DNA of 64,000 nt from the NCBI RefSeq assembly GCF_003790525.1, contig NZ_CP033635.1. One strand, given 5' to 3'. This document shows positions 60,911 through 64,000 of the stretch, in pieces. The notes beneath the pieces are model-generated. The model saw only the letters and a program-made list of their open reading frames with translations. It was not told the origin of the DNA and did no database searches. The position numbers were made by a program, and so were the translations under genes. The DNA is from Escherichia coli. GTDB taxonomy: Bacteria; Pseudomonadota; Gammaproteobacteria; Enterobacterales; Enterobacteriaceae. How positions within the stretch are numbered: position 1 is the stretch's first letter; the number at the start of each line of letters is the position of its first letter.

Positions 60911-60930
60911 GTCAGACGTGATCTGTGCCC

Positions 60931-60974
60931 CTCACCCTAACCCTCTCCCCAGAGGGGAATAGTGAGATTTTTTC
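60931..60974 (+). terminator. Candidate intrinsic terminator after yjgR
   Basis: Nested inverted repeats CTCACCCTAACCCTCTCCCC-AGA-GGGGAATAGTGAG followed by ATTTTTTC. Confidence 0.4.
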
Positions 60975-61164
60975 ATTTGGTTGATTTGATTGATCTATAT
61001 CCGTTTTCTTTGAAAATATAGCCCCCAATGTAGCCCCCATCGTATTGTTGCTGTACATGGAGGTAGATTGAACTCAGTTGAGGCATTATCTGTAATGACT
61101 CAGCGAATGCAGTATACCTGTCGGCCTTGTTCAGGACGAGACACAATACCCGTGATGTGTAAGT

Positions 61165-62013
61165 TTATACAGAAGAGCGAAATTTTACCGAATAATGTTT
61201 CGCCAGAACAGCATTCAGCTTCTCCACCAGTTCCGGGTGTTTAAACGTGATATGCGCAGAGCCCTTCCTGAAGTATCTGATGCTGAACATCTCATCTTCA
61301 TAGTACGCTTCACACTGAACGGACCGGATGTGCTCATCCAGACGAATGAGGATATTGTCCCTGTAATCGGGTATGGGTTTACCGCTGAACAGATACAGTA
61401 TCCTTTCCAGGTCGGCAAGCCGCCCTGCCTGCGGACCATGGTTCAGACCAAATCCCCACCAGTCCCATTTCACCAGGTTGTTGAGGATAATCTTGCTGCC
61501 GAATTTACAGGGTGACCTGTTGTTGTGCATCCGGCTCAGTCCTCTGAAGAGGTTGATGACGCCCCGTTCAGCCATTTCACCCCGGTTACGGTGCAGTTGT
61601 TCAGACGTGCTCAGGATATTGGCCTCGCTGATTTCCGGGAAATTATCCTCCTCCAGTGACCGGCACCATTCATCACGCGCCTGTGCATCCATCAGACTCA
61701 GCATTCCGGAGCGTTGCATCAGGTCACGCCAGATTTCGCGGTCGAGGTTGCGGGTGATGGCTTTCATTGCGGTTTCCGGTTTTTCCATCAGCCAGCAGCC
61801 ACAGCGAAAATCCTGTTTCACGGCCCAGTCCCGGGCCGTTTTACCTCCGATGCTTTCTGTCATTACTGAGATTTCTGCCAGTTGCCGGATAAGCCTTTCG
61901 GTTTGTTGCAGTGCTTCATTCCGTACCGTCACAACGTGCCGGATACTGGTTGAGCAGATAACGTCCGTATGTCCGTTAAGCGTTTCCGGACGGGAGACTG
62001 TGATATCAGACAT
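61165..62013 (-). CDS. Hypothetical protein of a CP4-44-like island (DUF4942-like)
   Basis: 282 aa ORF downstream of a yeeW-like gene on the same strand. Family assignment is by recollection of island gene content only. Confidence 0.35.
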   Translation of the reverse strand: MSDITVSRPETLNGHTDVICSTSIRHVVTVRNEALQQTERLIRQLAEISVMTESIGGKTARDWAVKQDFRCGCWLMEKPETAMKAITRNLDREIWRDLMQRSGMLSLMDAQARDEWCRSLEEDNFPEISEANILSTSEQLHRNRGEMAERGVINLFRGLSRMHNNRSPCKFGSKIILNNLVKWDWWGFGLNHGPQAGRLADLERILYLFSGKPIPDYRDNILIRLDEHIRSVQCEAYYEDEMFSIRYFRKGSAHITFKHPELVEKLNAVLAKHYSVKFRSSV

Positions 62014-62109
62014 AACCGATATTCCTTTTTGCAGATAAATGAAAACGCCAGCCGTATTCGGACTGGCGTCAGTGGAATGAATCGTGGTGAGTGAGATGAT
62101 GAGTGAGAC

Positions 62110-62814
62110 TCACAGGTTCTGGTGCTGAAGCTGCAGCTGGCGCAGGGTGCGGATATCCTCCCTGGCCTGTTCGATACAGGGCAACAGTGCTGCCGAATCC
62201 GTTTTATCCTCATCGTTGTCGAAGATAATGCAGGAGCCGCAGTCGATATTGTCCTGCAGCCACGCAATCAGAATATCCGGTGCTGTTTCTGTGGTTAATG
62301 ATTTCATACGGTGTCTTTTGTCCCGGTTACCAGTCGAAAGTGGGTAAACCCGGCAGACATTCAGCGCCGGCATCCAGATGAATGAGACTGACGCCATAAC
62401 GCCGGATGAGAGTGACAACCAGACGACGAAACGTTTTTGACAGACCCAGGCGTTTAAGCCGCAGAGCCGGGTACGACCACGCATCAGTACGTAACAGATA
62501 TCCGCTGCCTGTAAAATGAATCCATTCTGATTCGCGTTGTCATTCGTCTGATGCGACAGCGAGTACAGCCAGGCATTGTCCTGCTCCGTGATATGTGCGG
62601 TACTGCAGCGTATGCCGGTAAGGGCCGCAAATGGTGGCATGCAGTCTGCTGAGGTCCGGTCAGATTCATCAGCAACACGAAGGGAACAGCCATTATCGCA
62701 GACCACGTTAATCAGTTCAGCGAGATTAACACCATCGACGTCAGCGACAATGCGCCCCATGTTCAGTGCCTGTACGTTAACGCTGTCGGCTTCCAGTGTC
62801 AGGGACAGTTTCAT
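62110..62814 (-). CDS. yeeW: YeeW-like protein (C-terminal 65 aa match YeeW; N-terminal extension uncertain)
   Basis: C-terminal segment MKSLTTETAPDILIAWLQDNIDCGSCIIFDNDEDKTDSAALLPCIEQAREDIRTLRQLQLQHQNL resembles K-12 YeeW; a start at 62307 would give a 65 aa product. The upstream 169 codons are in frame but unverified. Confidence 0.4.
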   Translation of the reverse strand: MKLSLTLEADSVNVQALNMGRIVADVDGVNLAELINVVCDNGCSLRVADESDRTSADCMPPFAALTGIRCSTAHITEQDNAWLYSLSHQTNDNANQNGFILQAADICYVLMRGRTRLCGLNAWVCQKRFVVWLSLSSGVMASVSFIWMPALNVCRVYPLSTGNRDKRHRMKSLTTETAPDILIAWLQDNIDCGSCIIFDNDEDKTDSAALLPCIEQAREDIRTLRQLQLQHQNL

Positions 62815-63188
62815 GGTTTCACCTCACAGTGTTTACCCAGGGTGATGTTGTTCACCATTCTGTAGTGGCTGCGGGTCATCAGGCCGGTCGCCCGGCGGGC
62901 CCGGAGAATATCAATGCTGCTGATTAACTGCGATGAAGCTCCTGCGCTGAATCCCGGCTGGTCGGTACGCACCAGCGCGTATTTTTCCACAAGAAAGTTC
63001 ACCGCATCACACAGTGAAATTCCTGCCTCAATATGCTGCTCAATCACACGTTCATCGGCAAACGGCGTGTCATTCAGCGTGAGGCCGTAATGCTGGTCCA
63101 GCAGTCTGGTAAGCAGTGTCTGCCAGATTTCAACCGGAGACGGGCGTGAACCGGCCGCCTGCCCGGGTAATACAGGTAATGTTTTCAT
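62811..63188 (-). CDS. cbtA: CbtA/YeeV-family type IV toxin
   Basis: MKTLPVLPGQAAGSRPSPVEIWQTLLTRLLDQHYGLTLNDTPFADERVIEQHIEAGISLCDAVNFLVEKYALVRTDQPGF..., from an internal ATG. The track ORF is 5'-overextended to 63329. Confidence 0.7.
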   Translation of the reverse strand: MKTLPVLPGQAAGSRPSPVEIWQTLLTRLLDQHYGLTLNDTPFADERVIEQHIEAGISLCDAVNFLVEKYALVRTDQPGFSAGASSQLISSIDILRARRATGLMTRSHYRMVNNITLGKHCEVKP

Positions 63189-63277
63189 ACTGAAGATTTT
63201 CCTGATATGCAGAGATGAGAAATGGGAAAGTGGCGTGGTGAAAACACCAGGCCGTAGCAGAAGGCTATTCTGGAGAG

Positions 63278-63646
63278 TTAATTTTTCATTTTGGGCGTCG
63301 GATAAACAGCCAGATAAACGTAACCACAACTGCTGAGGGTATCGGCTTTGCAGGTCAGCCCTTTTGCATACAGTGTCACGGTATGCTGATGGCGGGGATT
63401 CAGTTCACCGCTGGTGAGCATGAGCTCCAGTTGTTTCATCAGCAGCGGAAAGGCCTGGTCCAGATGGTACGCATCCGCGTCGCTGAACCGGCCTCTGATA
63501 CCGGCGCGGTCGGCAAGGTAATGCAACCGGTTACCCTCCTGCACCAGACGTGCCCCAAAACAGGGCGTCACGGTGCAGGGTAGCCCCCACCAGGGGCGGT
63601 CGTTGTTATCGTCGGGATGCGTTGTCCCGGGGAGTGTGTCTGACAC
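63278..63646 (-). CDS. cbeA: CbeA/YeeU-family type IV antitoxin
   Basis: 122 aa, MSDTLPGTTHPDDNNDRPWWGLPCTVTPCFGARLVQEGNRLHYLADRAGIRG..., immediately upstream of the toxin. Confidence 0.75.
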   Translation of the reverse strand: MSDTLPGTTHPDDNNDRPWWGLPCTVTPCFGARLVQEGNRLHYLADRAGIRGRFSDADAYHLDQAFPLLMKQLELMLTSGELNPRHQHTVTLYAKGLTCKADTLSSCGYVYLAVYPTPKMKN

Positions 63647-63725
63647 GATAAAATCCTCACAGAAAATTGGTTAAGAATGGTCCGGTGGTGGCGATAATTC
63701 TGCTCTTCTGAATGCCCTTCCAGAC

Positions 63726-63947
63726 TCAGTTCAGGGTGACGCTCATCAGCCGGACATACGGACCAAAACTGTCCTTACGGCGTTCTGCAAATACAGCCAG
63801 CACACCGGGAATATCCTGTACTTCACGGCCGGTATATGTATCCGTGCTACCGTGCCAGCGGTATTTACCGGTACAGAACGGAAAAAGACGGGATGCAGGA
63901 TGCTGACGGTGAATATGCATGGCTTCACCACGGGTGATGATTTTCAT
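63726..63947 (-). CDS. yeeT: YeeT-like DUF987 protein
   Basis: 73 aa, MKIITRGEAMHIHRQHPASRLFPFCTGKYRWHGSTDTYTGREVQDIPGVLAVFAERRKDSFGPYVRLMSVTLN. Confidence 0.6.
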   Translation of the reverse strand: MKIITRGEAMHIHRQHPASRLFPFCTGKYRWHGSTDTYTGREVQDIPGVLAVFAERRKDSFGPYVRLMSVTLN

Positions 63948-64000
63948 GAGAATAGTCCTCCTGAATGTGAAAGTAAGAAACAGCTGAGAAAGAGAAACTG

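Follow-up and report, generated by a model that had tools for sequence, protein, structure and literature searches.

A probable CP4-type island end joined to a split BoxC repeat downstream of yjgR in Escherichia coli

Genomic islands moved by tyrosine integrases normally have one fixed chromosomal site, usually a tRNA gene, and islands of the P4 type are expected to carry arm-type repeats near both ends. Here, we describe the DNA that follows yjgR in a 64,000-nt stretch of Escherichia coli (contig NZ_CP033635.1 of assembly GCF_003790525.1; "the window" means this whole stretch), where a toxin–antitoxin (TA) module of the CP4-44 kind lies beside part of a dispersed palindromic repeat, BoxC. In K-12, the distal end of CP4-44 carries yeeS-yeeT-cbeA-cbtA-yeeW with the same gene order and orientation. 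A first-pass annotation of the window had taken such modules as marks of the distal end of P4-integrase islands such as CP4-44. In K-12, the module does lie at the end of CP4-44, and the TA proteins of the window are closest to the CP4-44 copies. The two elements differ in chromosomal site and in attachment sequence, and also in content: K-12 has a 64-residue YeeW stub and neither DUF957 nor DUF4942, whereas the window has a fusion of a YeeW-family protein with DUF957, followed by a DUF4942 gene.

The P4-type integrases of islands in tRNA or tmRNA genes (P4 at leuX, CP4-57 at ssrA, and one at leuX in the window itself) have the same three-domain architecture and the same PRK09692 match as the integrase of the main comparison genome, E. 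coli CM2. Such P4-type islands of tRNA and tmRNA genes target the 3′ end of a single tRNA gene, whereas the site considered here is a dispersed intergenic palindrome, with many sites per genome. Insertion sequence (IS) elements that land in dispersed extragenic palindromes are known, namely IS1397 and ISKpn1 (in BIMEs) and IS621 (in REP), but these are about 1.4 kb long and moved by a transposase, as opposed to a 70- to 115-kb tyrosine-integrase island, and the repeat family is a different one.

The gln (glnP–glnH) and ula (ulaE–ulaD) operons have been described as sites of pathogenicity islands (PAIs) with their own site-specific integrases in uropathogenic E. coli (Biggel et al. 2020, PMC7686366). 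These PAIs share both their integrase lineage and a non-tRNA type of site with the islands in BoxC. The sections of that report considered here present gln and ula as two fixed sites, draw no link to BoxC, and do not list yjgR–lptG, whereas the same integrase is found here at ten BoxC loci. The BoxC or PIT elements were later named TMECO elements, and 23 copies have been listed for MG1655 (Holder et al. 2015, PMC4666352). The same study reported raised genetic variability around these repeats and stated that no transposase or integrase remnants had ever been found near TMECO sites, leaving the mechanism open. The repeat at the present locus is of this type A, but it is interrupted at the apex by an integrase-borne island. 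In the literature searched, which leaves most subscription journals outside, we found no description of a dispersed-repeat attachment site, of islands at fabI/ycjD or yjgR/lptG, of a triplex repeat together with an integrase, or of the core sequence given below.

We interpret positions 60958–64000 of the window as the integrase-distal (attR) end of a large CP4/P4-integrase island that lies between yjgR and lptG and would have been inserted by site-specific recombination into BoxC. We give this interpretation a probability of about 0.8. The features on which it turns are the following (the symbol ^ in sequences marks the border between core and island DNA).

59408–60910, plus strand: yjgR, a 500-residue open reading frame (ORF), the last core gene ahead of the island; the aligned CM2 homologue is annotated as yjgR
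60928–60957, plus strand: retained part of a BoxC/PIT/TMECO type-A repeat, CCCCTCACCCTAACCCTCTCCCCAGAGGGG; core homology ends at 60957
60945–60957, plus strand: 13-bp core CTCCCC-AGA-GGGG, the putative attR crossover region; the pattern CTCCCC-NNN-GGGG is common to both island ends in the proxy genomes
60958–61164, no strand assigned: island-specific terminal segment, a putative P′ arm, holding two direct TAGCCCCCA repeats
61165–62013, minus strand: DUF4942 gene, 282 residues, the outermost island gene; the exact protein carries a precomputed PF13708 assignment

An island junction inside a BoxC repeat

In K-12, as the first-pass annotation had said, yjgR is followed by lptG, and the same order is seen in SMS-3-5. 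When 5426 complete E. coli genomes were searched by megablast with positions 59400–64000, and with the junction alone, a single one had yjgR joined to DUF4942, namely that of CM2, a strain from a chicken. Because the junction is this rare, the block is accessory rather than core, and the alternative that these genes are a strain-conserved core feature is ruled out by this comparison of synteny. The core DNA on the yjgR side is close to that of other strains: the stretch from leuX to the junction (52975–60957) is 99.95% identical to CM2, and positions 56700–60957 are 99.95% identical to SMS-3-5. The claim that a second accessory element abuts the idn-yjgR block is supported by these comparisons and by CM2, which has an island of about 92 kb at this place.

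In CM2, the DUF4942 end is the distal end of this mosaic island (record positions 1,719,9xx to 1,812,0xx). The other end holds an intact 397-residue integrase ORF about 250 bp from lptG, with the domains Arm-DNA-bind_3, Phage_int_M, and Phage_integrase; this protein and the integrase beside leuX in the window match the same NCBIfam integrase-domain model, PRK09692. Strain 135 has an island of about 99 kb between fabI and ycjD, with a P4-family integrase at the far end and the same two junctions. The expectation that the integrase end lies beyond the window is supported by proxy, through the CM2 integrase beside lptG; the integrase of the window island itself would, by analogy, still be next to lptG. 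The expected tRNA end was not borne out. There is no tRNA annotation between lptG and the integrase in CM2, and leuX, at 52979–53063, is the one tRNA gene of the window; the island junction lies inside BoxC instead. The terminal module of the window island is placed at the integrase-distal end, as in CP4-type islands, but its attachment site is a BoxC repeat and not, as is usual for such islands, a tRNA or tmRNA gene.

The junction can be placed closely by comparison. Core homology extends up to 60957, and homology to islands in other genomes begins at 60923–60954, which gives an overlap of about 30 bp. The empty site in SMS-3-5 reads CCCCTCACCCTAACCCTCTCCCCAAAGGGGCGAGGGGACCG, an intact BoxC that is followed by lptG; written in split form, it is CCCCTCACCCTAACCCTCTCCCC-AAA-GGGGCGAGGGGACCG. 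This site is a full match to the type-A pattern CCCTCGCCCC-loop-GGGGAGAGGGTTAGGGTGAGGGG and, read on the opposite strand, corresponds to the TMECO type-A sequences listed in PMC4666352 (its Table 1). The window leaves the SMS-3-5 core sequence after ...CAGAGGGG, and its DUF4942 end reads CCCCTCACCCTAACCCTCTCCCC-AGA-GGGG^AATAGTGAG. What is kept at 60928–60957 is the third-strand block, the left stem arm, the loop, and 4 nt of the right arm (type-A blocks GGGTGAGGG, TTAGGG, and GAGAGGG, then the loop and the 4 nt). At the other end of the CM2 island, the sequence is GATC^CTCCCC-AAA-GGGGCGAGGGGACCGTTCGAAC, followed by the lptG flank; the same junction, written as GATC^CTCCCCAAAGGGGCGAGGGGACCGTTCGAAC, runs on into that flank. 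The BoxC palindrome is thus split at the apex of its hairpin, and CTCCCC-NNN-GGGG is found at both ends of the island in CM2 and in strain 135. The loop may differ between the two ends of one island (ATA and AAA in CM2), as would be expected if strand exchange spans the loop.

These observations also change the reading of the hairpin after yjgR (60928–60966), which had been annotated as the yjgR terminator. We rejected that reading: the hairpin was not called in a terminator scan, and its fold z-score of -1.1 is no better than that of shuffled sequence. It is a hybrid attachment site, in which BoxC supplies its left two-thirds and the island the rest.

BoxC is present in many copies. A search of 5425 E. 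coli genomes with a 56-nt query gave a median of 17 matches per genome and a maximum of 32. The copy between yjgR and lptG is itself strain-variable and present in some lineages only: this attachment site is lineage-limited, because the K-12 spacer between yjgR and lptG has a REP-like palindrome in place of the BoxC copy found in SMS-3-5, CM2, and the window.

The mechanism that we propose is as follows. A P4-family tyrosine integrase would recombine two sites, the attP of the island (...GATC CTCCCC NNN GGGG AATAGTGA...) and, on the chromosome, the apex of a BoxC (PIT/TMECO type A) hairpin. Insertion would split the repeat and leave the 13-bp CTCCCC-NNN-GGGG at each end and, since BoxC is a dispersed repeat, the same element could use many loci. 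For the window island, the scheme predicts an integrase-end junction ..GGTCCCCTCGCCCC-NNN-GGGGAG^GATCTATTGAT beside lptG and a circular attP of the form GATCCTCCCC-NNN-GGGGAATAGTGA. The position of the crossover, the function of the arm sites, and the activity of the TA pair are likewise predicted from sequence.

The candidate arm sites of the terminal segment are its two direct TAGCCCCCA repeats, at 61019–61027 and 61031–61039, about 60 to 80 bp inside the core. The ATATAGCCCCCAATGTAGCCCCCA block is invariant in seven island variants, one of which is only 80.8% identical to the window end, while the DNA between this block and the core varies among the seven. A similar TAGCCCCCA pair occurs just upstream of the integrase start in islands of the CM2 type and in relatives at 91% and 80% identity. 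The TAGCCCCCA pairs are probably arm-type sites for the N-terminal Arm-DNA-binding domain of the integrase. In tRNA-Ser islands with the same genes, the terminal segment is absent and homology starts at window position 61212, which fits a P′ arm specific to the lineage that would target BoxC.

One integrase lineage at many BoxC loci

The CM2 integrase and close relatives of it occur beside several other genes. Where these were found on draft contigs, the gene names are our reading of Pfam content and K-12 gene order.

CM2 integrase protein, unchanged: neighbours glnH, ycjD, lptG, and yijF
Integrase allele with six residue differences: neighbours ycjD, glnH, yraQ, sstT, ytfQ, and gcvP
Integrase allele with one residue difference: neighbour yhfS

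All of these integrase-end junctions have the form ..CCCCTC[G/T/A]CCCC-loop-GGGGAG^GATCTATTGAT. At the opposite end, DUF4942 abuts yjgR, fabI, ygfF, glnP, gabP, and dolP, and the junctions at these six genes have the form TCAC[T/C]ATT^CCCC-loop-GGGGAGAGG[G/A]TTAGGGTGAGGGG. The terminal 3043 bp of the window are 99.93% identical to the ends at glnP, gabP, and dolP and 99.90% identical to the end at fabI, and these four ends and the window have the junction TCACTATT^CCCCnnnGGGGAGAGG[G/A]TTAGGGTGAGGGG. Such near-identity of the terminal 3 kb across loci points to recent spread.

Both ends were found in the same genome at lptG/yjgR (CM2), ycjD/fabI (strain 135), gcvP/ygfF (TUM9803), and glnH/glnP, the glnH/glnP islands having an integrase that is identical to that of CM2 or about 96% identical in protein (91% in DNA). 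Altogether, ten loci were recorded, and orientation is constant at all ten: the integrase end lies on the repeat arm without the third block and the TA end on the arm with it. Relatives of the integrase were found in 91 of the 5426 complete E. coli genomes, nine of which have integrase DNA at least 98.6% identical to that of CM2. Outside E. coli, exact-pattern scans of one genome per species for the integrase-end junction and for the arm-repeat pair gave no copy.

A more distant branch of the lineage sits inside the coding sequence of ulaE, at CACTCCCCGGCGGGGAG. These integrases have 80 to 84% DNA identity to that of CM2 (about 82% in protein for the one compared), and their site has the CTCCCC-NNN-GGGGAG core in common with BoxC but not the flanks, which looks like a shift of specificity within one integrase lineage. 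More generally, we propose that a lineage of P4-family integrases uses the apex of the dispersed BoxC repeat as attB, that one pathogenicity-type island of 70 to 115 kb could thereby enter a dozen or more loci in one orientation, and that relatives at about 82% identity use the same core in ulaE. This wider proposal is tentative, and we rate its chances as slightly below even.

Two genomes have island ends at distant positions. In Br_112_kylling (NZ_CP182371), the integrase end lies by glnH at 2.57 Mb and the DUF4942 end by glnP at 4.20 Mb; a rearrangement on the megabase scale, with a breakpoint in the island, has split the gln operon here. In 23CRST013 (NZ_AP045773), the DUF4942 end lies at glnP and the best integrase match, whose flank was not inspected, some 2 Mb away. 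This genome has three integrase copies, and CM2 has a second integrase match elsewhere.

Weighing the evidence for a complete island

Several points weigh against our interpretation of the window. The window stops at 64000, short of the integrase and the second junction of its own island, and the pairing of the window-type end with a specific integrase is putative. The island end is 94.6%, 91%, and 88% identical to CM2 in successive segments, despite the 99.95% identity of the core, so that CM2 is an imperfect proxy; the two may be independent insertions, or the TA end may have been swapped by recombination. The mobility of the window island has been read from its sequence rather than from an excision product, an attP circle, or integrase activity, and binding at the arm sites is a conjecture. 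Finally, a frameshift in the DUF5983 gene (see below) makes the module depart partly from its usual two-gene form.

The best-surviving alternative, which we nevertheless consider unlikely, is a decayed remnant, in which only the TA end survives by yjgR, the integrase end has been deleted, and the element is immobile, with lptG or other DNA following soon after the window. Islands of this sort are strongly mosaic and rich in IS elements and pseudogenes, the DUF5983 gene is frameshifted in the window, and the DNA to the right of the window is beyond view, all of which would suit a remnant. Yet CM2, the only complete genome with the junction, has a full island with an intact 397-residue integrase ORF, and the 99.90 to 99.93% identity of the terminal 3 kb to copies at glnP, gabP, dolP, and fabI suggests recent mobility rather than long decay.

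Much less probable is a homologous recombination or inversion, through island modules or BoxC copies, that moved the TA end of another island (e.g. that at leuX or glnP) to yjgR. TA modules are common to islands with different integrases, including tRNA-Ser islands, and in Br_112_kylling and 23CRST013 more than 1.6 Mb separates the integrase end from the TA end of one island type, so large rearrangements through these islands do occur. However, the break in the window falls at the same BoxC nucleotide as at ten other loci, CM2 has both junctions at yjgR/lptG with one contiguous island between them, and recombination between whole BoxC copies would not put island-specific arm DNA directly after GGGG. 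Inversion of the leuX island as the source of the TA end was considered separately and rejected: no simple inversion puts DUF4942 against yjgR, and CM2 has a separate integrase at lptG.

An assembly artefact, that is, a false join of the yjgR flank to an island end from elsewhere through the shared half of BoxC, is very unlikely. The sequence at the join is a dispersed repeat, and ends of the window type are known elsewhere from other loci, but no more than about 30 bp of repeat is shared, and the independently assembled complete genome of CM2 has the same junction.

Genes of the island end, neighbouring DNA, and implications

Five genes on the minus strand follow yjgR, from DUF4942 to yeeT, in the order given by the first-pass annotation, and the ORFs and BLASTP comparisons agree that all are present. 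Beyond DUF4942, listed above, the features are as follows.

62044–62070, minus strand: terminator-like hairpin with a 10-bp stem (six G-C pairs) and a T-rich tail, a match to consensus only
62110–62814, minus strand: 234-residue ORF, the N-terminal part of a DUF5983 (YeeW family) protein fused to DUF957
62811–63188, minus strand: CbtA-family toxin, 125 residues; its stop overlaps the start of the 234-residue ORF
63278–63646, minus strand: CbeA (YeeU)-family antitoxin, 122 residues, with a GTG start
63726–63947, minus strand: YeeT-like DUF987 gene, 73 residues

An NCBIfam search of the five window proteins from yeeT to DUF4942 gave no matches, and their identification therefore rests on BLASTP comparison with K-12 and CM2, on Pfam, and on the PDB. 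Compared with the CP4-44 proteins of K-12, the toxin has 89.5% identity to CbtA over 124 residues (E = 1e-83), the antitoxin 95.9% to CbeA over its full length (E = 3e-89), and the YeeT-like protein 91.8% to YeeT over its full length (E = 9e-52), similarities that are far above chance. The antitoxin also matches PDB entry 2H28 (YeeU) at E = 1e-80, and the YeeT-like protein matches phrog_14887 at E = 2e-35. Precomputed Pfam assignments (PF06755 CbtA_toxin, PF06154 CbeA_antitoxin, and PF06174 DUF987) exist for the neighbours in loci that are 99.9% identical to the window. In those loci and in CM2, radC, antirestriction, DUF932, and GTPase genes lie beyond yeeT.

The module is an ordinary member of the CbtA/CbeA family, with cbeA directly upstream of cbtA on the minus strand. 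In CbtA, R15 is needed for binding of MreB and F65 for binding of FtsZ (Heller et al., PMC5624674), and the toxin of the window has both residues. The predicted toxin would block FtsZ and MreB, and CbeA would counteract it, as a type IV TA system; we infer that the pair stabilizes the island. The DUF4942 protein is 92.9% identical to that of CM2 and shows weak similarity, in PHROG, to part of a DNA methyltransferase family. The T-tailed hairpin at 62044–62070, between the 234-residue ORF and DUF4942, suggests a transcript for DUF4942 that is separate from that of the TA operon. An Rfam search of positions 60000–64000 at E ≤ 0.1 found nothing.

The gene first described as yeeW-like is so in part. 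Its N-terminal part belongs to the YeeW family (Pfam DUF5983_N at E = 3e-29, with only a partial match to the DUF5983 C-domain; residues 5–54 are 68% identical to K-12 YeeW), but a 1-nt frameshift has fused it to DUF957. DNA alignment showed one G fewer than in CM2 and AR_0085 (GACAAC-GCGAAT versus GACAACGGCGAAT). Without this G, DUF5983 is read in another frame, which happens to have no stop before the DUF957 gene that follows. Residues 1–112 are 79% identical to the DUF5983 protein of CM2 and residues 170–233 are 94% identical to its DUF957 protein. A sequencing error was considered and rejected, as the same protein occurs on many contigs. The fusion is a widespread circulating allele and not a read error, because the identical 234-residue protein recurs in 32 blocks of the genome collection, including islands at BoxC loci and at tRNA-Ser genes. 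The fused allele may pass between islands by recombination, or the fusion may be tolerated or even useful.

Related islands carry varied cargo. Those of CM2 and strain 135 have an S6-family (SPATE) autotransporter, YadA-like adhesins, extra copies of yebF and dolP, and fragments of sitA. The strain 135 island also has tellurite-resistance and inositol-catabolism clusters, and the CM2 island has segments that are duplicated within it.

Ahead of yjgR, the window has the following genes.

51562–52827: intact 421-residue P4-type integrase by leuX
56946–58265, plus strand: idnT; idnR is also on the plus strand, and both lie ahead of yjgR

Positions 26720–41645 are 99.97 to 100% identical to the leuX island of CM2, a defence island in which a WYL protein, a JetD-domain protein, a phosphorothioate-dependent restriction enzyme, and an HNH nuclease are annotated. 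Within this part, the window has 1315 bp more than CM2, at 31300–32614, with a 402-residue ORF (31334–32542); an 8-bp overlap of the alignments there suggests an IS insertion with target duplication. Next to leuX, positions 41646–52974 comprise 11.3 kb that are not in CM2 and include, besides the integrase listed above, a 777-residue P4-family primase (42180–44513) and a 710-residue P-loop ATPase. This extra DNA looks like a P4-like satellite in tandem with an older leuX island, CM2 having only a truncated integrase there.

Neither the TA module nor the presence of an island is unusual, whereas an attachment site in a repeat with about 17 to 23 copies per genome is. If our interpretation is true, one island could occupy many loci, several of them at once, as in the genome with three integrase copies, which would explain the same island at gln, fabI, gcvP, yraQ, ytfQ, sstT, yhfS, yijF, gabP, and yjgR. 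The window would then be one of very few sequenced cases at the yjgR/lptG copy. Insertions could break operons, the glnH/glnP, ytfQ, and ulaE sites being inside operons or genes, and homologous island copies at scattered loci would be substrates for large inversions, of which two such cases were seen. Typing of islands in extraintestinal and avian pathogenic E. coli (ExPEC/APEC) by a few tRNA loci would miss these elements. For the repeats themselves, the finding would be the first concrete link of BoxC, or triplex, repeats to a mobile element, a link that Holder et al. (2015) sought in vain, and would offer a concrete mechanism for the unexplained "genomic instability" at TMECO sites.

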